A DNA stretch of 64,000 nt from the IMG/VR virus record IMGVR_UViG_2603880214_000004, positions 1 through 64,000 of that record, one strand, 5' to 3'. The first letter of the stretch is position 1; every line of letters starts with the position of its first letter. A model generated the notes under the pieces. It was given only the letters and a program-made list of their open reading frames with translations, made no database searches and had not been told where the DNA came from. The position numbers and the translations under genes are program-made. This document shows, piece after piece, positions 3,472-15,625 of the stretch. The stretch is from a virus. Its lineage: Duplodnaviria; Caudoviricetes.

Positions 3472-4344
3472 GTGAAGAAATTAGCGTTAATTACAGGTAT
3501 AAATTATCGAGGCAGTAAATATGAGTTAGGGGGCTGTATAAACGATGCATCAATGATCTTAAATACGCTAGTTAAAAAATTTGATTTTAATCAGTCTAAT
3601 ATACAATTACTTATTGAGGAAGTAGCGACTAAAAAAAATATTCTCAAAGGACTGGAATGGCTAGTTAATCAACTAGAACCTGGGGATATTGGATTATTTA
3701 CATACTCGGGACACGGAACACAGACAGCGGATTTGCCACCAATTGATGAGGAAGATATGTTGGATGAAGCTATTGTACCCATCGATGCACTTGCTGACCA
3801 ATCTAATCTTATTAGAGATGATGAAATTAATACAATACTATCTAACATACCTAAAGGTGTAAAATTTGTGGTTATTTTGGATAGTTGTCATTCTGGAACT
3901 GGTACAAGGAACTTTGGTAATTATTATTCTATTCCGCAAGCGCGAACTATTGAGGATGTAAAAGCAATAATTAATAGTTTTAATAACGTTGAAAGAAGAG
4001 ATTTATCAAGTATTAAACCTCGTTACATTCCTCCAACCCAAACCATTCAAGACATAAAAATGATTATGAGTGGTTTTGAACCTATTAGAAAAGACTTTTC
4101 ATCTTTTTCAGGACCGAATCATATTTTATTAGCAGGATGTAAAGCAGATCAAGTATCATATGATGAAGGTACATATGGCCGTTTTACTAAAGCATTAACT
4201 GACGTGATGGGAAGCCAAAGTGCAATCACTTATAAAGAGTTATATTTCTTAGTAAGAAATATGGTTTTAGAGCGCTCAAATTACGCTCAAGAACCTCAAT
4301 TAGAGGGACCTGATGATTTAATAAACTTACAAATTTTCGAATAG
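3472..4344 (+). CDS. Caspase-family (peptidase C14, metacaspase-like) protease
   Basis: GCINDA, YSGHG (catalytic His), LDSCHSG (catalytic Cys), QEPQLEG. Confidence 0.92.
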   Translation: MKKLALITGINYRGSKYELGGCINDASMILNTLVKKFDFNQSNIQLLIEEVATKKNILKGLEWLVNQLEPGDIGLFTYSGHGTQTADLPPIDEEDMLDEAIVPIDALADQSNLIRDDEINTILSNIPKGVKFVVILDSCHSGTGTRNFGNYYSIPQARTIEDVKAIINSFNNVERRDLSSIKPRYIPPTQTIQDIKMIMSGFEPIRKDFSSFSGPNHILLAGCKADQVSYDEGTYGRFTKALTDVMGSQSAITYKELYFLVRNMVLERSNYAQEPQLEGPDDLINLQIFE

Positions 4345-4691: not shown

Positions 4692-5990
4692 CTATTCCAC
4701 CTTATTTAATAAACTCTTACCTCTGTTCCAATGATTATCTAAATATGTATTCCATAGATCAATATGTCTTATTGAATCCTGTTTAACAAAACGATTGTTA
4801 ACTAGCCTTATGAAATAAGGAGATCTACATAATAATTTTGATACCGCTACTTTAAAATTTATATATTGTTTTGTGTTAGGTCCTGATGAAAAATCTTCAT
4901 TATAATCCTTATACAGCTCTATCCCCGCATGTACAAATTCTGATCTCCAAGTATAAATTTGACTTATTAATGAACTAAATTCATTCTTATCCATGACATC
5001 CCAATTAACCAAACAAGGGAATAATACACGTAATCTGTCTCGCTTAGAATCTTTATGTTTTAATAGAATATTTTCACTAGCAATTGTTAACAACAATAAA
5101 GGTGTTCCTAATCCTTGAGTTATATCATTACTATTTTCAACCTCTATAGCTCTTTTAAAAAAATTTATACCGTTCAAAAATTTTTGGGAGACCGGGTTAT
5201 GAGTTTTCATAACCATTTCTTGATATATTAGATCCAATAACTTTATATATTTCTTTTCTAGGAGCCAGTCTAAGTTTATAAAACAATTTGCATTAAAATT
5301 AAGCGGTGCGTTGTTGAATTCATATTCTGTAGTACCACATGTTAAGAGAATATTAATATGTTCATTTTGATGTATATTACTGAAAAGAGGTAATTTGTAT
5401 TTAGGATACACATTCCCCCAGTATATAGCATGTAAAATAGAATTTGTATAAAGTCCTATATGTCTTGCCCTATAAAAAACATAACTATATTGATGTTTTA
5501 CTCTAATAGCTACTAATGGATGTTGTAAAAAAGAAGATGATTTTCTCTCAATATGCTGCATTCTTGTTTTCGTTTCATTCAATGACACTTTAAATATTTT
5601 TTTTAATGTATTTAATTTTTCATTTCTATCCCCTGAAATGAAAATAAAATCTTTATACTTTACTGTTTTTGAAAGAAATGCTCCTTTTAAAGGGAAAATG
5701 ATCCATCTTTCTTTGATATTTATATAAAGATTTTCATATATATATTCTAAAAATTGATCTGCATCTTGATCACTATAGTTTGTTTGCTGTTGTATGTGTA
5801 TATCTTCGAGATACGAATTAATTATACTTTCTGCTATTTCAACTTCAAAAATAGCACTAAATCTAGGGTGTTCATATATTTTTTCTAATAAAGTTTTCAA
5901 GGGCTTATCACTATGCATATCTACATCCCATTTGTTATTCCTATTACAGTAATATAATGCAGCCTTAGCAAATCGTCTTAATGATTCCAA
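4692..5990 (-). CDS. HEPN-domain (ApeA-like) putative antiphage RNase
   Basis: C-terminal IASENIL...IYTWRSEFVHAG with RxxxxH motif; low GC; stand-alone gene. Confidence 0.7.
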   Translation of the reverse strand: MESLRRFAKAALYYCNRNNKWDVDMHSDKPLKTLLEKIYEHPRFSAIFEVEIAESIINSYLEDIHIQQQTNYSDQDADQFLEYIYENLYINIKERWIIFPLKGAFLSKTVKYKDFIFISGDRNEKLNTLKKIFKVSLNETKTRMQHIERKSSSFLQHPLVAIRVKHQYSYVFYRARHIGLYTNSILHAIYWGNVYPKYKLPLFSNIHQNEHINILLTCGTTEYEFNNAPLNFNANCFINLDWLLEKKYIKLLDLIYQEMVMKTHNPVSQKFLNGINFFKRAIEVENSNDITQGLGTPLLLLTIASENILLKHKDSKRDRLRVLFPCLVNWDVMDKNEFSSLISQIYTWRSEFVHAGIELYKDYNEDFSSGPNTKQYINFKVAVSKLLCRSPYFIRLVNNRFVKQDSIRHIDLWNTYLDNHWNRGKSLLNKVE

Positions 5991-6649
5991 CGATATACAC
6001 TCCTTTTTATATTGTTTTTAATGTATCAATATTCAAATTATATATTACCTGTAGAAATAAAGTTATTGAAAATGAATTTATATTTTAAAATTCAGCACTA
6101 AAATAGGACTTATAAAGGAAGGTAAAATGATAGGTCTAAAAACAAGAAGTACCTCAAAATGTGATTATGATTGTGTTAAATCATAAAAAAAGACACCCTA
6201 AGGTGCCTTTCTCCGACTTGAACCACTTTAATTTTATATAAATATACACGTATTACCCCTTTGTTATACGTGTAAACACATCCTATAAAACAGAATCGTC
6301 TATATACACCAGATTGTTAGTTCACAAAATATCAAGAGATTTGAGATCAATATGTTACGTCTTTTAAAAGAATCTGCTTTATAGAATGTATCCACAATTT
6401 ATATTTTACTACATGTAATATTTATTTGGTGTATTTTTTATGAATATGTATAATTGCATAAAGTATATGAAAAAATGAGAGTATACTTTGGTATTGTGTA
6501 ATAAAGATATAGCCCACCTACGGAAATAGGTGGGCTTTTTTATATTGGTGAGATTGTACTAGTATGATAGAATAAGAACAACTGTATATTGTAGGGTGGG
6601 CGGTTGCGACTGTCCTTTTCTCATTTAATGAGGAAAGGAGGTGTAGCCA

Positions 6650-6805
6650 ATGGATCTATTTCTTCAAATAGTATTAGAGGTAATTAAGACGATCGTACGA
6701 GAACTTGTAGTTTTCGTGGTTAAGAAAATTACTTCTAAAAATAAAAAGAAGAAGACCACCCGTCAGCCTCGCAAGCGTGGGAAGTCTTCTAAATCTAAAA
6801 AGTAG
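6650..6805 (+). CDS. Putative type I toxin peptide MDLFLQIVLEVIKTIVRELVVFVVKKITSKNKKKKTTRQPRKRGKSSKSKK (not in ORF track)
   Basis: RBS AAAGGAGGTG held in a hairpin; hydrophobic/amphipathic N-terminus plus basic tail. Confidence 0.7.
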   Translation: MDLFLQIVLEVIKTIVRELVVFVVKKITSKNKKKKTTRQPRKRGKSSKSKK

Positions 6806-6906
6806 TATTTAGTTGCAACCACTCACCTTGCGGTAGCAGTTACTTGAAGAGATGTTGACGCATCTCTTCTTTTATTATATACATACTGTATTACTGTAAT
6901 ACTAAT
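6790..6906 (-). ncRNA. Putative antisense antitoxin RNA (ends approximate)
   Basis: Convergent promoter TTGATT-N16-TATAAT (6940-6913) reading into the toxin 3' UTR. Confidence 0.45.
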
Positions 6907-7149
6907 ACAGTAATTATATCAAATGCACATAAAAAATCAATGCGTACGTAATGGATATAATGGACAAAAGAAAAGACACTCTAAGGTGCCTTCCTCTACT
7001 CAATCTACATAAGACTTTTCTTACAGCACAAATATATCTGGGTTCCACCCAATTTATATTTTACTACATCTCTTTATAAAGTTTAATTAATTTAATGTAA
7101 ATTTTATAAAGAAAAGACACCCAAATAAGAGTGTCTTTTCCCATAGTTT

Positions 7150-7260
7150 TTAGCAGAAACAGCTGCATCCGATAATGATTAATAGAATAAATAATACAAC
7201 TAATAAAGCGAATCCTCCAGCAAAACCGCAGCCTTCGCCGCAACTACCACCATATCCCAT
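7150..7260 (-). CDS. YjcZ-family sporulation peptide MGYGGSCGEGCGFAGGFALLVVLFILLIIIGCSCFC (not in ORF track)
   Basis: GFALLVVLFILLIIIG signature; RBS AAGGAGG. Confidence 0.85.
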   Translation of the reverse strand: MGYGGSCGEGCGFAGGFALLVVLFILLIIIGCSCFC

Positions 7261-7550
7261 AACAATAGTGCCTCCTTTAGATTAGAGGGTAAAACTAGGG
7301 TTCATTCCATGAATTTTAATGGGTTCACTTTACCTTATGTTTTTAAGAAATTAATTGAGCAGGTCCTTTTGAAAATAGAGAAAAGACACCCTAAGGCGCC
7401 TTCCTCTGACTTGAACCATCTTAATTTTAATAATATGTATTGGAATACCATCCAAATATTGTTTTACCATGTTAATTAATATCGGCCATTAAGAAATAGG
7501 GTTTAAGTCTATATTTTGTGGTCAAGCTTTTTAATAGAAATTTATGTTAC

Positions 7551-8339
7551 TTAATTGTTGAAGTATTCATCTTGAATACGTTGAGAATATATCGCCCCTA
7601 CTTCTTCAAAAATTGATAATAACTCATCATATGTATTCTCATCATCACCAATTTTGTTCCATAATTCAGCTCCAATAAGTACACATGGGTCATAATCCAT
7701 CTCAAAAAGCGCAAAAGGAAGTTTATGTGATTGACTACGATACAAATTTCCTTCTCCCGCTGGATTATAAGGTAATCCAAAATAAGCTTCATATCCTTGA
7801 TCGCTTGCAATTAACCTGAACATATTTTTCTTGGCAAGTTCAGTTTGATCTAAATTAGGTTTTACAGTTTTGAAACTATAGAATTCTTCTGTACCATCTG
7901 TTCTCCGAATATATAAATCACTTTTTACTAAGAAATTTTGTGTTATTGGGTTATTTAAAGCTAAAATCTCTGTAACTTCCTCTTCCCAATTAGGTAAACG
8001 ATTCCTAGAACGTTGTTCTCTTAAGATGGTATCAATTTGTTCAGAACGCCATGTATTTATGGTAACCTCTTGATCATATTGATTTTCTGCAAAAGCGCCA
8101 GCTCCTTCTGCAATGATTTTTCCTATTTGTTCAAAAATGCGTTGCCCCAATGTTGTAACAAAACTTCTTTCAAATTTAGATCCTTTCCAGACTTGACTTG
8201 GGACTAGATGAAAACCAAAAGGGTTTTTTGAAGCAATCTCAGTTTGGTTGAATGGTTCTTTTACAGTTCTTTTATGAATTAGTTTCTCCATAACTTCTGC
8301 TAAATGGTTTTTAATCTGCTGCTTCGTATGTTCATTCAT
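7551..8339 (-). CDS. Type II restriction endonuclease, TdeIII-like
   Basis: FERSFVTTLG, SDLYI..FKTVKPNLDQ, LPYNP; downstream of a C5 MTase. Confidence 0.75.
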   Translation of the reverse strand: MNEHTKQQIKNHLAEVMEKLIHKRTVKEPFNQTEIASKNPFGFHLVPSQVWKGSKFERSFVTTLGQRIFEQIGKIIAEGAGAFAENQYDQEVTINTWRSEQIDTILREQRSRNRLPNWEEEVTEILALNNPITQNFLVKSDLYIRRTDGTEEFYSFKTVKPNLDQTELAKKNMFRLIASDQGYEAYFGLPYNPAGEGNLYRSQSHKLPFALFEMDYDPCVLIGAELWNKIGDDENTYDELLSIFEEVGAIYSQRIQDEYFNN

Positions 8340-8407
8340 TAGATTTTGCTCCTTTAGGATAAATTTACCTACAAGGTCTATTATAAAATAAAAAACATAG
8401 GAAGGAC

Positions 8408-9502
8408 CTATGTTTTTAAAGTTTTTAAGATTGCTCGTCCCATAACTTCTGCTAAACGGACAGGGACAGCATTACCTATTTGAGTATATTGCTTGCCAAG
8501 TGTACCTTTAACTATATAATCTTTTGGAAATTCTTGAATTGCTAAATATTCTTGTATACTTAATGCACGATCTTCATAAGGATGTCCTAAATTCGTACTT
8601 TTTTGTGTTGGTGAAGTCAATACTGTTGGAGATGGCTTATTTACATTTACTCGACGAAAGAAACCTACTTTACCACCACCACTTGTGTAAGCTCCCCCCA
8701 TAGCTTCTTTTACAACATCTTCAGGGAGATCCCGCCAATTTCCACCACCCAGAGGAATCATTTGCATATACTTTAATCTATCCTCAGAATACTCTTGATA
8801 ATTATGTTCTTCAACTTTTAAATTTTCTAACACTTGCCCAACCGTTCTCCAAGGTAAAAGACCATTATTTCCATTCTTATTATGAGTCGGTGTTGGAAAA
8901 ATAAAATCTCGATTTAAATCTTCCCTAATTCCAACAATAAAAACACGTTCGCGAGCCTGTGGAACGCCAAAATCTGCGGAATTTACTAAAGTTGGTGTCG
9001 CGATGTTGTATCCTTCAAATCGGTTAAGTAAAAAGCGCAACGCACTGCCCTTAGTTTCTTCCTCTGTTAAAGGTGGAAAACCTTCTCCTTTTTCTTTTAA
9101 CGGGCGATTTTTTAATGGTGAAGATAAAAGCCCTTTTACATTTTCAATTAAAAATGCTTTAGGTTGTAATTCATGTATTAAATCAACAAATTTTAACATT
9201 GCTTGTCCTCTAGGATCATTAAAAGCCTGTCTTTTCCCGGCTGTACTAAAACTTTGACACGGGCTTCCACCAAATAATAAATCAATTTCTTCACTTTCTC
9301 CGAGGTTAGCATCTTCTCTAACACGAGAAGCATTATATTCCATTATATCCCCTTGTTTAATATTCCAATTAGGATTGTTAATTTTTAACGTTTCACAATA
9401 AACAGTTTCAAGTTCAACTGATAATTTAACATCAAAACCAGCACGATGAATCCCTAAATCTAATCCACCAGCACCAGCAAAAAATGATATTGCTATTGCC
9501 AT
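8408..9502 (-). CDS. DNA (cytosine-5) methyltransferase of the R-M system
   Basis: FAGAGG, GSPCQSFS, ENV, QARER, QIGNAV motifs. Confidence 0.95.
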   Translation of the reverse strand: MAIAISFFAGAGGLDLGIHRAGFDVKLSVELETVYCETLKINNPNWNIKQGDIMEYNASRVREDANLGESEEIDLLFGGSPCQSFSTAGKRQAFNDPRGQAMLKFVDLIHELQPKAFLIENVKGLLSSPLKNRPLKEKGEGFPPLTEEETKGSALRFLLNRFEGYNIATPTLVNSADFGVPQARERVFIVGIREDLNRDFIFPTPTHNKNGNNGLLPWRTVGQVLENLKVEEHNYQEYSEDRLKYMQMIPLGGGNWRDLPEDVVKEAMGGAYTSGGGKVGFFRRVNVNKPSPTVLTSPTQKSTNLGHPYEDRALSIQEYLAIQEFPKDYIVKGTLGKQYTQIGNAVPVRLAEVMGRAILKTLKT

Positions 9503-9897
9503 AATAAACACCTCTTAATAATCAATAAAAATACTATAACATGTTTTAATTTATCGGTCCACTAGTTTATTTATATGGATAATTTTAACACTTTAAATTT
9601 AATAACAATCTTTTTATTAAAGTATTATTCAAAATTAAAAACATTATCATCATAAAGGAAAAAAGAAGAAGTATTGTAATATGATAACTATTCATATGTT
9701 TATTTACTTCTTATAAGATAATGTTATCATTCATTCTTAAGCTTTTTTCCATTTAGATGTTATTTCTTTTTTGAAAAGGATGTTATACCTTTTTATAACT
9801 ACTTAATACGTATTAAAAGGTATAATGTGCACATTACCTAAAAAAACACCCAAAGGTGCCCTGAATCATGTTATTTTGAAATAATTATATTATTTAT

Positions 9898-10515
9898 TTA
9901 TTTATTTATTAACTTTAAAATTTCTTTTGTAGCTTCTAACCTAACAGTTTCATCCTCAGAGTTTTTCATTAAGTATTTTAATGTTTCTAACGACTCTTTA
10001 AGTAGATCTTCACTATTCTCAAGTTTAGTCGTTGTTGGCTTTTCACCAGTAATATATTGTTCAATTTCAGCTTCTTCCCATGTGCCATTAAAACGGCAAA
10101 CCGTGCGAATGTTTTTAAGTAAAGATTGTATTTTTGCATTAAATTGTTCGAAAGGAACTTCATTTAACCAAGTAACTGAACGTGTATGAGGCATATAATC
10201 TTTGATATAATCTTTATTCCATGTATACTCATTAATCTCCCCTATATGAACTATCCCCTTTTTACGAACAAGAACTATATCACCAGCATTCATTACAGTA
10301 ACAAAGGTATTGACCATACTAAAATTGGTTCTAAATGATTGACCTTCATAACTTGGATAGGCAGAGGATAGCTTTTCACGAATTACATCGGTGGATGCCC
10401 CTGTTAAATCGCCAGTTTTGGACCAACCAATCGCGATGAACTCATTCTCGATAAAGCTTTCAAATCGCTCTATTTTCTCTGGTTTAGTTCTTAACATGAA
10501 AATATTTTTAACCAT
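9898..10515 (-). CDS. Mrr-associated (COG4127-like) putative modified-DNA reader without a nuclease domain
   Basis: IAIGW..GDL, MNAGDIVLV, HIGEI, HTRSVTW pattern; short helical C-terminus. Confidence 0.55.
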   Translation of the reverse strand: MVKNIFMLRTKPEKIERFESFIENEFIAIGWSKTGDLTGASTDVIREKLSSAYPSYEGQSFRTNFSMVNTFVTVMNAGDIVLVRKKGIVHIGEINEYTWNKDYIKDYMPHTRSVTWLNEVPFEQFNAKIQSLLKNIRTVCRFNGTWEEAEIEQYITGEKPTTTKLENSEDLLKESLETLKYLMKNSEDETVRLEATKEILKLINK

Positions 10516-10546
10516 TGTACATTCCTCCCAGGTTTTATATGTAGAA

Positions 10547-10604
10547 CTAATTTATGCATAGTTATAACTAAGTTGCAACTTAGTTATAACTATGCATAAA
10601 TTAG
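10547..10604. repeat. 58-bp perfect palindrome with no loop
   Basis: ctaatttatgcatagttataactaagttg|caacttagttataactatgcataaattag; the halves are exact reverse complements. Confidence 0.97.
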
Positions 10605-10756
10605 AAATGTTTGTCAAATAAAAAAAGCACTCTTTTTTGAGTGCCTTAAAATCCATATTTTATTAGATTCATAAACTTCCTATAAATTAGAATACAAATT
10701 ATAGAAATGTAGTTATAATCTACTATTTTATTATATATTTTTGGGGAGGATGTATA

Positions 10757-11045
10757 GTGAATAAAGTATATGAATTTAAAAGTACTGGAAAGTCTATAAT
10801 CACTATTGATGGGAACTTTATCCGCATAAAAAGAAAAGGATTTGTAAACCTTATGAATCACGGTTTAGATGGCTGAAGAAATCAAAACATATATAGAAGG
10901 AATATTGTCGAATAAGGGGCAAACACAAGTTGCTACAACTGCAAGTGGAGCTGACGAAATATTAAAGTATAAAGGGTTGTTAGATTAAGGAATTATTACT
11001 GAAGAAGAGTTCTAAGGGAAGAAAAAGCAATTATTAGGTATATAG
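10757..11045 (+). pseudogene. Degraded DUF4429/SHOCT-type gene
   Basis: Fragments VNKVYEFKSTGKS..HGLDG* and GADEILKYKGLLD*GIITEEEF*GKKKQLL with internal stops. Confidence 0.65.
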
Positions 11046-11216
11046 AGGAGACGCTCATTTGAGCGTTTTTTATTTTATTATCAGGTGATTAATATCATAT
11101 GTATTATTGTAAAAAAGACCTAGATAATAATTTATTTTAATTGGACTATAGATACTTAAAAATAAATAATTAAGGTATAATATTTTTTGTGAATAATTGT
11201 AGGGAGGGGGAATATT

Positions 11217-12287
11217 TTGTCTACACGTATTTATTTTTCTGATGTTTTCGAAAGAATTTCTCAGTTCATAGGTGAAGAAGATATTCATATAGATGAGGAA
11301 TTTTTAAGTTCTCTTTTGCGTTTTCTTTCTAAAGTTTGTAATTATGAAGAAGAAGAAATCAAAATTAGACCTAAATTAATACTTACAAAGAATATAGAAA
11401 AAGTTTTAAAAACAGTTCCTTATCATTTCAAAGTTAAAAGAGGAACGGGAAGAAGTAATGGTGAAGACTTTGATAAGATGATAAAGGCTATTATGCCTTT
11501 TTGTAATTTAGGATGGTACGTTTATGTTGATTTTCAAGATGATGAAATTGAATATGGGATAATCCGTTCATTTAGTGGCCCTAAGGGTTTGACTCTAACG
11601 GAGACACTATATTCTAATAATCTTAATGAAGAGGGAGTTTCAATAGTAGAAATTTCTGTAGCTAGTAAATTTGAAATAGATATACAGGGGGTTAAACAGG
11701 AAAAGTTAATAATTGATTTTAGATTAGTTAGTGAATGTCAGCAAGATTATCCCACTATAATAGACTCAATGGCAGGAGATATTGTAGCTAAAATAGATGA
11801 TCAAGAAACACGTGAAAAATTGATTGATGTATTTAAGAAGTTACTTAGATTACCTCAAGATAGAGTTCATGGAACTATATGCATGGTGGTAAATGATGAT
11901 TATTGTTTTCCAAATGACTCTTTATCGGATGGGATTTGGCTTGATGAGCCAATAAACCTCTCTGAATCCGCGTTATTTGCAATTAATGAAACTAGAGATA
12001 TTTATTTAGGGGAAAGATACTATGCACTTTCAGGACTATTCATAGAAATGTTAAATATGGATGGTATAACGGTTATTGATAATAAAGGGAATGTGCGTGG
12101 ATTTAATGTATTTATTAACAAACAGATAGAAGAGAAGTCGGCAAGATTAATTTCTGGCGGAGCAAGAAAAAGAGCTTTCTATTCATTGCTTGAGACTGGG
12201 GATTCAAAAATTATAGGTGTTTATTTCCAATCTCAAGATGGAGAAATAATGTATAAAAGGATGTGTGATTACCGTGACGGAAAATAA
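11217..12287 (+). CDS. DisA_N/diadenylate-cyclase-fold protein with N-terminal extension
   Basis: HGTICMV, MDGITVID (cf. DGA), GGARKRA (cf. GxRHRxA), SQDGEI. Confidence 0.75.
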   Translation: MSTRIYFSDVFERISQFIGEEDIHIDEEFLSSLLRFLSKVCNYEEEEIKIRPKLILTKNIEKVLKTVPYHFKVKRGTGRSNGEDFDKMIKAIMPFCNLGWYVYVDFQDDEIEYGIIRSFSGPKGLTLTETLYSNNLNEEGVSIVEISVASKFEIDIQGVKQEKLIIDFRLVSECQQDYPTIIDSMAGDIVAKIDDQETREKLIDVFKKLLRLPQDRVHGTICMVVNDDYCFPNDSLSDGIWLDEPINLSESALFAINETRDIYLGERYYALSGLFIEMLNMDGITVIDNKGNVRGFNVFINKQIEEKSARLISGGARKRAFYSLLETGDSKIIGVYFQSQDGEIMYKRMCDYRDGK

Positions 12288-13590
12288 TCTTCCAGTTGTA
12301 TGGGGAGCGAATCAAGGGCTCTCTATTCCAGGACATGAATTGATACAAATAAATAAAGTGGTCGAATATAACAAAAGGCTGTACCCTCGTGAGGTACAAA
12401 CTATAGTAAAAGCCTTTGATAACGAGTTGTACGATATGGCTATTGAGTATACTTGGACAAGAACCTTTAATATATTACGTGAAAGGGTCATGTCTTTTGG
12501 AAAAGATTTTGTACTAGAAATGTTAGGAAGAACCGATGAGGATACTTTAGATTCGCTTTCTGAGGTAGAAACAGTAAGGTTGGCTGCGGATTTAGGAATT
12601 ATTAATGAAACGGCTAAAATGAGGTTTATGCATGTAATCGAATTAATACAACACTATTCATCAAGAAAGGCGCCTGAAGGAGAAGCGATTAATACTTTAG
12701 ATGCTTTAAATAATGTAGGAATATGTGTTCAATATGTATTAGGTTTTGAAGAAGATGGATTTATGATAGAATACTCATCATTTAGAGATAGGTTAAAGAC
12801 AGAAAGAATCCCTACAGAAGACTCAGTTGTTGAAACTTTAAAGTTGGCTCCTTATTTCTATAAAAGAACGACGCTGCGGACTTTGTTGAATCTTATAAAG
12901 AGAACAAAAGGCGGTGAACAGGAAAATGTATTTGCCAATATGAGTACCATAGTTCCGGTCGTTTGGGAGGATCTTATGTCAGATGACCGCTATCCATTAG
13001 GATTCTCTTATGCTGAGGCAATTAATGAAGGAGACCAAAAACTAGTATCTGCTTTTAAATCAGTATTGTTAAAGGTACAAGGGTTTGATTATGTTCCAGA
13101 AGATTTACGTTCAAGATCATTTATTGCTGTCGCAAAAAATTTATTAGATGTTCATTATGGGATTGATAATTTTTATAAAGAGCCTGCAGCAGCCAAATCA
13201 TTAATGTCAATGGGAACCACTATACCAAAACCTGCAATTGGAGCAGTCTTGTCTGCAACATTAGCTTGTAAGATAGGAAATAGTTATGGTGTATCTAATC
13301 TTGCGCAAGCGTCCCTAGATAAAATTCTTGGAACTTTATCCAAGGAGCAATGGGAACATTATTTCAATACTGTCTTCCCTGCAGATGAAACAATAATTGA
13401 CAAGCTTATGTATAGTAATGACAAGATGCAAAAAGAATGGACTAAAGTAATTGAAGTTTATTCTTTGGATCAGTTGAATTTCAAAAATACAAAAATCGGG
13501 AATTTGGTTGTAGCATCAAGAAATTCAAAGTATAAACGAGTTAAAATAATTTTAGGTGAATTAAATGAAAAAATACGTGGGGAGAAATAG
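12265..13590 (+). CDS. Helical protein coupled to the DAC-fold gene, possibly a degenerate HEPN-like N-terminus
   Basis: Overlaps the upstream stop; AIEYTW..LAADLGII..IQHY helix pattern lacking RxxxxH. Confidence 0.55.
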   Translation: MITVTENNLPVVWGANQGLSIPGHELIQINKVVEYNKRLYPREVQTIVKAFDNELYDMAIEYTWTRTFNILRERVMSFGKDFVLEMLGRTDEDTLDSLSEVETVRLAADLGIINETAKMRFMHVIELIQHYSSRKAPEGEAINTLDALNNVGICVQYVLGFEEDGFMIEYSSFRDRLKTERIPTEDSVVETLKLAPYFYKRTTLRTLLNLIKRTKGGEQENVFANMSTIVPVVWEDLMSDDRYPLGFSYAEAINEGDQKLVSAFKSVLLKVQGFDYVPEDLRSRSFIAVAKNLLDVHYGIDNFYKEPAAAKSLMSMGTTIPKPAIGAVLSATLACKIGNSYGVSNLAQASLDKILGTLSKEQWEHYFNTVFPADETIIDKLMYSNDKMQKEWTKVIEVYSLDQLNFKNTKIGNLVVASRNSKYKRVKIILGELNEKIRGEK

Positions 13591-13823
13591 AATTAACGTA
13601 AGATGTGTTTTTTTAATAAAGCCCAATCTTTACTATGAAGTAGCCACTAGAACCATGAGATATACTGAGACTCTGTTAAGTAACAGGGTCTTTTATTATT
13701 GCTTGTATAGATAAATTTATTTTTGATTCTATAGAAAGATAATAAAAAAGAGAGCGAATGGGGATATTACCGCATTTGATAAATCTAGCAAATGAGGATA
13801 ATTTCCTTTATTATGAAATCAAA

Positions 13824-13961: not shown

Positions 13962-14310
13962 ACAGAAAGATGCACTATTGCATACCTTTATCCTTAAGTG
14001 TGAGAAAGCCTTGATATATAGCTATTTTCAAACTTTCTCAACATTTTTCTGATAACCACACGACTGAATTTTGGCAAAAATATGATATTATGAAAATAAT
14101 AAAATAAACGGACGTAAAAAAGACTCACAGCGTGTATAAGTAGTGCGCTAACACTCTTACACCGCTTTCCCTAATCGCACTAGGGAAAACACTTACTGCA
14201 AGTCTTACACAAATTATAACACATCTTTTGAATGTAGTGACGCGTTTTCCTTTGAAAGTTAAAAAATGGGTATAACGTGTCTTTTGTTCCGAAAAAAGGG
14301 GAGCAAAGTT

Positions 14311-15438
14311 ATGCAAAGTGTTTTAAATAGAATAAACGATGATCTGTATGCACAAAAAATAAGTAACAGACAGTTATCTACAATGCTAGATATAAGTCAC
14401 ACAACCACTAATGCTATGTTATCAAACAAGAGGGAGTTTGATTTTGTTCATTTTGTTAGGGTATTACAAATGCTTTACCCTAATGATGTTAATTTACGAA
14501 GAGAATGTTTGAGAGGATTTATAAATAAAATCTCTCCTAAAAATGTAAGATTAGGAATGGAATTTTTAAATTTATATGGTGAACTTGATTTGCAAAATAT
14601 TTTAGTTGAAAAATCTAACCAATCTTCAAATCGAGTAAATAAACAATTAGCTGAAGTATATGAATTATTGCTTCGTAGAAGTGACGAAACAATTACAAGG
14701 AAAGATTTTCACCAAGAGGTCGAGAAAAAAAGAAAAGAAAAGAAAATTACCAGTAATGAACTACGTATAGTTTCTGATTTCGCGCTAATTTATTCATTCT
14801 TGGACTATAAAAATTATCAAATGGTATTAAAATACACAAAAGAATTAAGAACTTACATCGATGAAATTAAGAATAGGTCGTTATCTCACTCTTTCTTGAT
14901 AAGAGCCAGAGAAATGGAAGCAACAACTAACCATCGAACTAATAATATAGAAGATGCTCGTATGTTGTGCCAAAAGATAATTAATGATCAAGAGAATATC
15001 TATATTGGTACAATAGCTAATGCTTATTGTATTTTAGCGGAAACGTATTCTTTTACAAATTTTAAGATAGCGAAAATGCTCTTAGAAAGAGGTATTAGAC
15101 TACTTCATAACCCAACCAATAAGAAGCTAATAATTAGAAGAGCTGTTTTAGAAAACACTCTTGATTTTTTACGTCTGCATTGGGGAGAAGAGTTAGATTT
15201 GGTGAAACCGCACCATGCAGCAGAATTAGCCTTTCTATACATTAAAAGCAACCGTAAACGTGAAGCTATTGCGATTTTGGATAAAATTAAAAGGGAAAAT
15301 GGTTCATTGTCACCTATGCAAGAATACTATATGGGATTGGCGACAGGTAATAAAAAACACTTCGAAATTTCTATAGAAAAATTTGAAAAAACAGGAGATT
15401 TTTTCTATATTTCACTCCCTAAATATGCCTTGAAATGA
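14311..15438 (+). CDS. aimR: AimR-family arbitrium receptor (HTH + TPR)
   Basis: N-terminal HTH, TPR-like helices, followed by a secreted peptide gene and next to cI. Confidence 0.85.
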   Translation: MQSVLNRINDDLYAQKISNRQLSTMLDISHTTTNAMLSNKREFDFVHFVRVLQMLYPNDVNLRRECLRGFINKISPKNVRLGMEFLNLYGELDLQNILVEKSNQSSNRVNKQLAEVYELLLRRSDETITRKDFHQEVEKKRKEKKITSNELRIVSDFALIYSFLDYKNYQMVLKYTKELRTYIDEIKNRSLSHSFLIRAREMEATTNHRTNNIEDARMLCQKIINDQENIYIGTIANAYCILAETYSFTNFKIAKMLLERGIRLLHNPTNKKLIIRRAVLENTLDFLRLHWGEELDLVKPHHAAELAFLYIKSNRKREAIAILDKIKRENGSLSPMQEYYMGLATGNKKHFEISIEKFEKTGDFFYISLPKYALK

Positions 15439-15472
15439 TATAATGGAGGCATAAATAGAGGTGGTGAAATGA

Positions 15473-15625
15473 TTGAAATCAAAAATCATTAAATCGATTT
15501 TAGCGATTGCCGCTGTAGCTTGTTTTTCTTTTACAGCAGTAAAAACAGAAGATACACAACAGGTTGCAAAAGTAGAACAGCCTGTACTATATATGCAAGT
15601 TGATCCTGGCGGAGCCGGGGGGTAA
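15473..15625 (+). CDS. aimP: Arbitrium pro-peptide MKSKIIKSILAIAAVACFSFTAVKTEDTQQVAKVEQPVLYMQVDPGGAGG (not in ORF track)
   Basis: TTG start after GAGGTGG; signal peptide; C-terminal DPGG-type peptide. Confidence 0.85.
   Translation: MKSKIIKSILAIAAVACFSFTAVKTEDTQQVAKVEQPVLYMQVDPGGAGG

Follow-up and report, generated by a model that had tools for sequence, protein, structure and literature searches.

Here we describe a two-gene cassette found within a window of 64,000 nucleotides (nt), i.e., positions 1-64,000 of IMGVR_UViG_2603880214_000004, a 72,872-bp IMG/VR provirus record rated 100% complete. The first gene of the cassette (gene 1) encodes a protein resembling diadenylate cyclases (DACs), and the second one (gene 2) encodes an all-helical protein. 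The nearest named homologs of both proteins come from the Bacillus cereus group. The cassette, its flanking signals, and the parts of the two proteins (in amino acids, aa) considered below are localized as follows.

11046-11071, plus strand: terminator-like hairpin 5' of the pair; 11-pair stem with four GC pairs and a T tail, closing the preceding pseudogene unit
11142-11170, plus strand: weak sigma-70-like promoter candidate, 9/12 matches
11203-11211, plus strand: ribosome-binding site GGGAGGGGG, preceding the TTG start of gene 1
11217-12287, plus strand: gene 1, TTG start, DAC-like protein of 356 aa
11217-11744, plus strand: N-terminal alpha/beta domain of gene 1 (aa 1-176), a separate domain without a family match
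11343-11354, plus strand: YEEE motif of the N-terminal domain (aa 43-46)
11745-12284, plus strand: C-terminal DAC-fold domain of gene 1 (aa 177-356)
12060-12068, plus strand: D282-G283-I284 (DGIT at 282-285), the equivalent of DGA in DACs
12165-12173, plus strand: R317-K318-R319, the equivalent of RHR in DACs
12231-12242, plus strand: S339-Q340-D341-G342, corresponding by position to SEETG (CdaA) or SQ (DisA) after RHR
12265-13590, plus strand: gene 2, GTG start, all-helical protein of 441 aa; alternative start at 12274
12370-12759, plus strand: HEPN-like four-helix-bundle region of gene 2 (aa 36-165)
13153-13182, plus strand: H297...E306 of gene 2, H-x-G-x-(D/N)-N-F-Y-x-E-P, the best conserved stretch of the wider superfamily
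13667-13692, plus strand: terminator-like hairpin 3' of the pair, 77 nt past the gene 2 stop

The overlap of the two open reading frames (ORFs) had been noted in a preliminary description made from the sequence alone, and it is present as described. It comprises 23 nt, or 14 nt with the start of gene 2 placed at the fourth codon, which is where the database forms begin. The two genes are translationally coupled and, since terminator-like hairpins flank them on both sides, constitute a discrete bicistronic unit. The scan that detected these hairpins yielded nine terminator-like sites in 4 kb, compared with 1.3 expected; promoter-like sites were not enriched (13 found, 20.4 expected).

Relatives of the cassette, approximately 92-97% identical, were observed on contigs from two other public runs (X2 and X3). 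The similarity of these contigs to the window has its left edge at position 11146 and its right edge between 13496 and 13697, and their flanks are unrelated to the window. Both contigs break at 11146 and continue into an identical foreign flank. Such an arrangement would fit a cassette that moves together with its own promoter, and the common break suggests a recurrent insertion or exchange boundary. No public run covered as much as half of the stretch. Among the four public runs compared, a soil metatranscriptome contained one 162-nt contig within gene 2, which does not show transcription, and one RNA run of the species label had no contig over the locus. Searches of GenBank phages by blastn and tblastn returned no match to the locus or to either protein.

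The DAC-fold protein and its helical partner

The gene 1 protein has no family in Pfam, NCBIfam, PADLOC, or PHROG at E<=1, and a sequence search of PDB gave no matches at E<=10. A search of the window's own genome with PF02457 was likewise negative, gene 1 being below the Pfam detection limit. Among 120 listed relatives, four carry a precomputed PF02457 match, and a few are labeled 'DAC domain-containing protein'. An AlphaFold2 model was built from an alignment of 27 sequences (pLDDT 85.5). In the VIA exhaustive fold search with residues 180-351, the top six rows (Z 8.1-10.5) are all DAC chains, namely DisA (3c1y; Z 10.5, root-mean-square deviation (rmsd) 3.3, 126 aligned residues), MsDisA (10.3), DacM (9.9), 2fb5 (9.1), CdaM (8.4), and CdaA (8.1), and the next row has a Z of 3.5. 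The top Foldseek rows are also nearly all DisA, CdaA, DacM, and CdaM. The preliminary assignment of this protein to the DAC fold is thus borne out, the C-terminal part matching DisA, DacM, CdaA and nothing else; by its predicted structure, gene 1 is a DAC-fold protein.

Canonical DACs form cyclic di-AMP (c-di-AMP) from two ATP molecules in a head-to-head dimer. We compared the C-terminal half of gene 1 with a profile of ten canonical DACs, drawn from genomes that also carry the pair, using hhalign (E 7.9e-5, probability 61%). The alignment pairs HGT with GAL, DGI with DGA, and GGARKRAA with GTRHRAA, and so places the DGI and RKR motifs, which had been read as DisA_N-like, on the canonical ones. 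Residue conservation was assessed in 85 proteins (80 loci, the window, two proviruses, and two plasmids). Residues D282, G283, R317, R319, S339, and G342 are invariant (85/85), and position 341 is acidic in all proteins (D in 64, E in 21). Position 284 is occupied by Ile in 83/85 proteins, as opposed to Ala in the canonical DGA, and position 318 by Lys (69), Arg (12), or other residues (4), as opposed to His in the canonical RHR. Since DGI and R(K/R)R are kept across all these relatives, they represent family signatures under strong constraint and not decay. As judged from residue conservation, the center of gene 1 is conserved and probably active.

The N-terminal domain of gene 1 contains six residues, E45, E46, P52, K90, W100, and G114, that are invariant in 85/85 relatives. 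No convincing solved fold was found for it, the best VIA row being the soluble domain of CorA (Z 3.5). A possible origin as a degenerate DAC copy has no sequence support: hhalign detected no similarity to DACs or to the C-terminal domain of gene 1 (E 0.38 and 0.18, respectively), and hence this idea is left with a similar order of secondary-structure elements and a statement on DACNH quoted in PMC13640721. A shape search in the ESM Atlas, which provides a lead only, placed the domain nearest to N-terminal parts of other multi-domain DAC proteins, with TM scores of 0.54-0.67 for DACNV/DACNH/DACNK clusters and up to 0.83 for unnamed clusters.

The gene 2 protein has no Pfam, NCBIfam, or PADLOC family at E<=1, no PDB sequence match at E<=10, and no match in BFVD at E<=0.001; its only PHROG match, phrog_27609, is not functionally annotated. 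In agreement with the earlier reading of gene 2 as all-helical, the model (pLDDT 84.7) comprises 23 helices and no strand. The neighbors of the four-helix-bundle region (residues 36-165) include the HEPN chains 2hsb (Z 9.0), 1wwp (8.8), 5yep (8.7), 1jog (8.7), 8xdj (8.3), and 7ae2 (7.7), values that fall in the chance range, as a Z under approximately 13 is commonly random for helical models. Thus, of the HEPN-like pattern lacking RxxxxH that had been proposed, the absence of the motif holds (Rx4-6H is found nowhere in gene 2 and at no conserved position among 29 relatives), and the HEPN likeness itself is weak. A resemblance to armadillo/importin proteins (Foldseek, PDB) was set aside as one of generic repeats (TM ~0.3, rmsd 15-19). 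No part of gene 2 is hydrophobic enough to look like a membrane span (the top 19-residue hydropathy mean is 1.14), and family-library scans revealed no recognizable toxic domain in it.

The mean column identity is 59% for gene 2 (29 relatives) versus 37% for gene 1. Among 37 diverse members of the gene 2 superfamily, P321 is invariant, and at least 90% of the members retain W64, L71, N225, W234, G273, H297, E306, L313, G338, N339, and G342. The conserved positions are localized mostly in the C-terminal half of the protein, in the vicinity of H-x-G-x-(D/N)-N-F-Y-x-E-P.

Distribution of the pair and of its two components

We scanned one genome per species (185,579 species) for gene 1 and obtained 229 positive genomes, of which the best 80 loci were analyzed. 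To define neighboring genes, we applied a simple longest-ORF rule, and family annotation was performed on a sample of them. The pair is conserved: in 46/80 loci, gene 2 is situated directly downstream of gene 1 on the same strand, at a distance ranging from -65 to +4 nt and most commonly with a 4-nt overlap. Adjacent locus tags for both genes were also found in nine NCBI genomes. Given 314 relatives of gene 1 and 176 near-length relatives of gene 2 at E<=1e-3, the observation is not a matter of chance.

A tree of 82 gene 1 proteins was constructed with FastTree and rooted on the Vibrio member. As this is a quick tree with long branches, only its coarse division into two clades is trustworthy. 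Clade A (12 rows, including the window) consists of paired genes exclusively and has long branches and a patchy taxonomy, with labels of Bacillus, Paenibacillus, Desulfosporosinus, Syntrophomonas, Lachnospiraceae, Congzhengia, and a Geobacter-labeled metagenome-assembled genome. Clade B (69 rows, support 97) is labeled as Clostridia or other Bacillota in all but two rows; 35 of its rows are paired and 34 are unpaired, the latter being found in at least two subclades.

Mobile and defense-related genes were observed next to the pair in clade A and on plasmids. Clade A loci feature Tn7-like TniQ/TnsAB/TniB (L003), an HTH-M78 gene (L005; HTH, helix-turn-helix), and a ResIII helicase (L001), and two B. 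cereus-type proviruses (L082 and L083) share a common layout of an HTH-M78 gene, the pair, and an integrase-like gene, ahead of the terminase. On a Vibrio plasmid, the gene order is HTH (C-protein/capH-like), gene 1-like, gene 2-like, and a 204-aa ORF, with a BsuBI restriction-modification (R-M) system alongside. The gene 1-like protein of this plasmid has 25% identity and contains DGI and GGARSR, and the gene 2-like protein has 35% identity. The 204-aa ORF (L086, 3225-3839), possibly a third component of the proteobacterial version, has no family match and overlaps the end of the gene 2 relative; the window lacks it. On an Agrobacterium pAt plasmid (L099, 2671-7257; hhalign 99.7% for the gene 1 relative), the pair abuts divergent patatin and nucleotidyltransferase genes, resembling CBASS. 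On its other side, a 'pre-toxin TG domain' protein and an ankyrin-repeat protein are encoded. No PADLOC matches at E<=0.1 were obtained for the Vibrio pair, its 204-aa neighbor, or two stand-alone gene 2-like proteins.

The gene 2 module is far from restricted to the pair. When 1.84 billion representatives were searched exhaustively with a profile, 655 gene 2 superfamily clusters (defined at 50% identity) were identified at E<=1e-3, 433 at E<=1e-10, and 158 at E<=1e-30. Proteins of 773-2205 aa include one gene 2 relative, and further fusions were retrieved by the exhaustive search. The module occupies the C-terminus behind an N-terminal caspase domain (P0248, P0250, P0251, P0255, and a protein of the IMG/VR provirus L084), behind a calcineurin-like metallophosphatase (Metallophos; P0247, P0241), and behind a Ser/Thr protein kinase (Pkinase; full-length P0299 and the kinase-bearing fragment P0362). 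The L084 protein (9221-11305) is a 694-aa fusion of Peptidase_C14 (1.4e-13) with the gene 2 module (3.4e-144). It comes immediately after a 1045-aa SIR2_2 protein (6045-9182) and a large serine recombinase, with a UvrD/PD-(D/E)XK protein also adjoining, an arrangement that looks like a defense hotspot at a prophage end.

On plasmids, a gene 2 relative was found in 82 records and a gene 1 relative in only two of them. The other 80 records encode stand-alone gene 2-like proteins of approximately 470-480 aa without a DAC-like gene, in hosts including Escherichia, Klebsiella, Shigella, Clostridium perfringens, Streptomyces, and Bacillus; hhalign of gene 2 to the E. coli stand-alone form gives 98.4%. 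The six stand-alone contexts examined were varied, and none of the stand-alone gene 2-like proteins carries a functional annotation. Some stand-alone genes lie in line with larger ones, e.g., with a 'dsDNA nuclease domain' gene and a gene for a 557-aa protein in B. mycoides (L103, 996-5191) or with genes for 'ATP-binding proteins' of 588-668 aa in Pantoea and Streptomyces (L101, 600-5197, and L102, 3035-7399, respectively), and may be tied to SMC/ATPase-type systems; these neighbors bring a possible Lamassu-like relation to mind. Since each is found without the other, gene 1 and the gene 2 module are autonomous, and the pair is one combination.

Possible function of the pair

We tentatively interpret the pair as a self-contained mobile conflict module carried as prophage cargo, in which gene 2 would have a sensing or regulatory role and the DAC-like enzyme would provide the output; the probability of this interpretation is roughly 0.45. 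Its target would most likely be superinfecting phages or other invading elements. The respective roles are assigned from the architecture of the gene 2 relatives, in which a constant C-terminal module is combined with interchangeable enzymes (protease, kinase, phosphatase), and a constant module with exchangeable enzymes is a pattern of sensor-plus-effector conflict proteins. The mobile, defense-adjacent contexts of clade A support a conflict role of the window cassette.

In such a module, gene 1 would fill the slot taken in the fused relatives by the caspase, protein-kinase, or metallophosphatase heads and would function as an active, ATP-using nucleotidyl-transfer enzyme. Gene 2 would either restrain gene 1 or activate it upon a trigger, and the ensuing burst of product would arrest the cell or block the invader. 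This product could be c-di-AMP or another cyclic dinucleotide, or else the reaction might merely drain ATP. In hosts to which c-di-AMP is essential but in excess harmful, a toxic surplus might protect; in Bacillota, such an overdose could act through c-di-AMP targets that the host already has. In B. subtilis, c-di-AMP is described as essential (PMC10636490).

DAC enzymes joined phage defense only in 2025-2026, in two forms described mainly from Gram-negative bacteria. In CBASS-DAC/DS-2, CdaG-type proteins of approximately 550-575 aa with the domain order DACNG-DACNH-DAC occur with a cGAS-like cyclase as well as a patatin (PMC13069673, PMC13092281). In Panoptoo/PanDA, a minimal DAC of approximately 150 aa (PanS) is combined with a 2TM-beta effector, PanE (10.64898/2026.08.10.743927, PMC13640721). 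PanS, a validated defense DAC, works with DGF and GGR (10.64898/2026.08.10.743927), and PanDA is reported never to occur in a genome with a non-immune DAC (PMC13640721).

The cassette shares with Panoptoo/PanDA a DAC-fold enzyme, a two-gene operon, mobile DNA, and proximity to other defense genes. As in PanS, the motifs of gene 1 (DGI, GGARKR) depart from DGA and RHR, with D-G and Arg retained. However, PanS consists of the DAC domain only, whereas gene 1 has 356 aa with a 176-aa N-terminal domain; the predicted soluble, all-helical gene 2 protein of 441 aa is unlike the membrane effector PanE, a two-transmembrane beta-barrel (S2TM-beta); and, contrary to the exclusivity reported for PanDA, all seven larger genomes with the pair also hold canonical DACs. 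The resemblance to CBASS-DAC/DS-2 lies in a DAC with N-terminal accessory domain(s), here a domain similar to DACNV/DACNH/DACNK by structure (a lead), and in the defense context. In the Agrobacterium relative it extends to the adjoining patatin and nucleotidyltransferase genes, but these are transcribed divergently. Gene 1 differs from CdaG in having no DACNG or DACNH match at E<=1 in a Pfam library whose content of these models we deduce from accessions and date, in being approximately 200 aa shorter, and in its partner, the gene 2 module; neither a CD-NTase nor a patatin gene is present among the scanned ORFs of the window.

The altered motifs had at first been taken as a hint of a non-canonical messenger. 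This is not supported: DGI and R(K/R)R are family-wide, PanS functions with DGF and GGR, and, since the gene 1 motifs also occur in members with a housekeeping context, they are no mark of a special non-canonical product. Compared with CdaA, DisA, and CdaS (PF02457), gene 1 agrees in its fold (Z 8-10.5) and in where the catalytic D-G, Arg, and Ser are placed, but it is below Pfam detection, shows family-wide replacements of Ala by Ile and of His by Lys/Arg, has a different N-terminal domain, carries neither a membrane anchor nor an HhH domain, and is not partnered with CdaR, GlmM, or RadA. A census of DACs (Galperin 2023) reportedly comprises 22 families and may already include that of gene 1. 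Avs/STAND proteins and LmuA of Lamassu are similarly modular, a constant module bearing exchangeable effector heads at its N-terminus; unlike in these systems, no NTPase or SMC partner of gene 2 was seen, and no PADLOC model matches it. Full-text literature searches returned no description of the pair or of the gene 2 module, and supplementary tables of recent defense papers may list the pair.

Several observations weigh against a conflict module with gene 2 as its sensor. Gene 1 occurs without gene 2 in 34/80 loci, five of which have less than 500 nt of downstream sequence. A PADLOC check, which the preliminary description had suggested, was negative for both proteins (PADLOC-DB 2.0.0, E<=1). 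The division into sensing and acting roles is drawn from domain architecture alone, and the stand-alone plasmid proteins suggest an activity of the module itself beyond sensing. Gene 2 is also unusually conserved, unlike many phage sensors. Further, the neighbors of clade B genes, identified by Pfam at L036 and L018 and counted across loci by phmmer, are housekeeping genes: SDR (30/35), PRK/uridine-kinase-like (23), GroES (21), and SepF (20) within 6 kb at paired loci, and pheT (13/34), cardiolipin synthase (11), and YqeY (8) at unpaired loci. None of these was found in 11 clade A loci. The synteny of clade B looks like that of a physiological and not a defense gene, and the mobile version may derive from a clade B-type physiological enzyme, or the reverse.

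Small genomes of Clostridia (0.8-1.2 Mb) with gene 1 add to these points, as none of eight (L036, L018, L065, L015, L025, L011, L014, and L049; G001-G005, G128-G130) has a PF02457 match above the cut-off. Two sub-threshold matches lie, by coordinate arithmetic, inside gene 1 itself. One to three canonical DACs were found in each of the larger genomes that carry the pair (7/7). In a sample of 121 genomes from the order of one small genome, a canonical DAC is present in 114, and gene 1 is present in two, both among the seven without a DAC. Canonical c-di-AMP signaling may be gone from this lineage, either lost or replaced. The c-di-AMP riboswitch, DarA, and PgpH were each found in 0/5 small genomes, absences that are provisional because genome completeness is not reported.

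The same data are the basis of an alternative in which the pair is a physiological module, i.e., an alternative diadenylate-cyclase system with its regulator, taken up to retune the c-di-AMP physiology of the host (potassium/osmolyte, cell wall, sporulation) and not directed against phages. Clade B is syntenic and apparently vertical, situated beside GroES, SDR, PRK-like, and SepF genes; the small genomes carry gene 1 in place of any detected canonical DAC; gene 2 is strongly conserved; and the host group of the window sporulates and uses c-di-AMP. We nevertheless consider this explanation unlikely. With the riboswitch, DarA, and PgpH missing, canonical c-di-AMP signaling is not evident in the five small genomes, subject to their unreported completeness. 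Vibrio and Agrobacterium plasmids carry the pair next to R-M or CBASS-like genes, and caspase fusions are localized next to SIR2 genes, as is typical of conflict systems. The plasmid-borne pairs also fit poorly with a phage device that perturbs host c-di-AMP and sporulation, the second option of the preliminary description.

Its first option, antiphage nucleotide signaling, is retained insofar as the cassette encodes a DAC fold with a conserved center in a mobile, defense-adjacent pair. The scheme of a cyclase feeding a HEPN-like effector is weakened because gene 2 has no HEPN motif, the module occurs without a DAC-like gene on 80/82 plasmid records, and it is fused to other heads. More generally, classical second-messenger immunity would have gene 1 sense through its N-terminal domain and make a cyclic nucleotide, with gene 2 as receptor and effector. 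This order of events is that of CBASS, Pycsar, and CBASS-DAC. The invariant residues of the N-terminal domain, whose shape resembles (again as a lead) the 'sensor' N-terminal domains of DACs, could serve for sensing, and the near-invariant W64, N225, W234, H297, E306, and N339 of gene 2 could form a ligand pocket next to an HEPN-like bundle. Yet gene 2 lacks Rx4-6H, membrane-span hydrophobicity, and any recognizable toxic domain, gene 1 persists in 34/80 loci lacking gene 2, and a module that is found without a DAC-like gene and with other heads does not depend on a DAC product. We regard such a relay as improbable; the occurrence pattern of the module suits a sensing or regulatory function better than that of a nucleotide-activated effector.

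Least probable, in our opinion, is a toxin-antitoxin or addiction pair similar to HEPN-MNT, in which the DAC-fold enzyme would modify (e.g., AMPylate) or titrate gene 2 and thereby stabilize the prophage or plasmid. In both cases a nucleotide-transferring enzyme is encoded beside a protein with a modeled HEPN-like bundle, and the structural neighbors of this bundle include the HEPN-MNT toxins 5yep, 8xdj (AMPylated), and 7ae2. The genes are tightly coupled on mobile elements, and the heads of the fused relatives (kinase, phosphatase, protease) all act on proteins. However, helical bundles often reach such Z values by chance, a minimal HEPN toxin is a third as large as gene 2, and without Rx4-6H gene 2 presents no HEPN RNase to neutralize. 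In addition, the DAC fold differs from the pol-beta fold of MNT, and the chromosomal synteny of clade B is unlike that of addiction modules.

Returning to the conflict module, a more far-reaching form of it can be formulated, although we find it rather doubtful. The cassette would represent a third DAC-based immunity class, the first in Gram-positive prophages, in which a two-domain DAC is turned on by a helical sensor module that caspase-, kinase-, and metallophosphatase-headed proteins also contain. The product would poison the infected cell via the essential c-di-AMP network of the host or be a non-canonical nucleotide, and the enzyme family would have been domesticated as the sole DAC-like protein in small-genome Clostridia.

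If the conflict reading is true, the cassette is a distinct DAC architecture within c-di-AMP-dependent hosts, which raises the question of whether an immune DAC is insulated from essential c-di-AMP signaling or exploits it. The gene 2 module, an unannotated superfamily, is the more original element of the pair, and its interchangeable partners (caspase, kinase, metallophosphatase, DAC) make it a candidate for a new sensing or regulatory component of conflict systems. The gene 1 clade of small-genome Clostridia, in turn, bears on how this lineage handles or has replaced c-di-AMP signaling.

Genes around the cassette

The description of the surroundings as a defense-rich island was confirmed, with genes for a TdeIII-type enzyme, a C5 methylase, a PDC-S02-like protein, and a caspase-domain protein upstream of the pair, and AimR with an AimP-like ORF downstream.

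3472-4344, plus strand: caspase-domain gene (Peptidase_C14, 6.3e-34), 290 aa, upstream of the pair
4692-5990, minus strand: 432-aa protein without a Pfam match; WRSEFVH (Rx4H pattern) near the C-terminus
7551-8339, minus strand: TdeIII-type restriction enzyme, upstream, half of a type II R-M pair
8408-9511, minus strand: C5 cytosine methylase, upstream, half of a type II R-M pair
9898-10515, minus strand: PDC-S02-like gene; its match to PADLOC PDC-S02 models covers their N-terminal half (3.8e-21)
10552-10599: inverted repeat with a perfect 20-bp stem between the PDC-S02-like gene and the pseudogene, called terminator-like on the minus strand by the scan
10758-11040, plus strand: three consecutive short reading frames, running up to the terminator at 11046-11071
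14266-15625, plus strand: AimR (NF038310, 1.9e-112) and AimP-like ORF, an arbitrium module downstream of the pair

The three short frames preceding the cassette were read by eye as a frameshifted remnant of what we take to be the SHOCT type (ADEILKYKGLLD / GIITEEEF). Farther upstream, the 432-aa protein is encoded close to the caspase-domain gene, and the two may constitute another defense pair in the same prophage arm. This protein was considered as a relative of gene 2 and ruled out, the two being unrelated by hhalign. Downstream of the pair, the AimP-like ORF encodes 50 aa with the C-terminus VDPGGAGG, a glycine-rich end that is presumably unlike the SPbeta and phi3T peptides. It is followed further downstream by an HTH repressor and phage replication genes.

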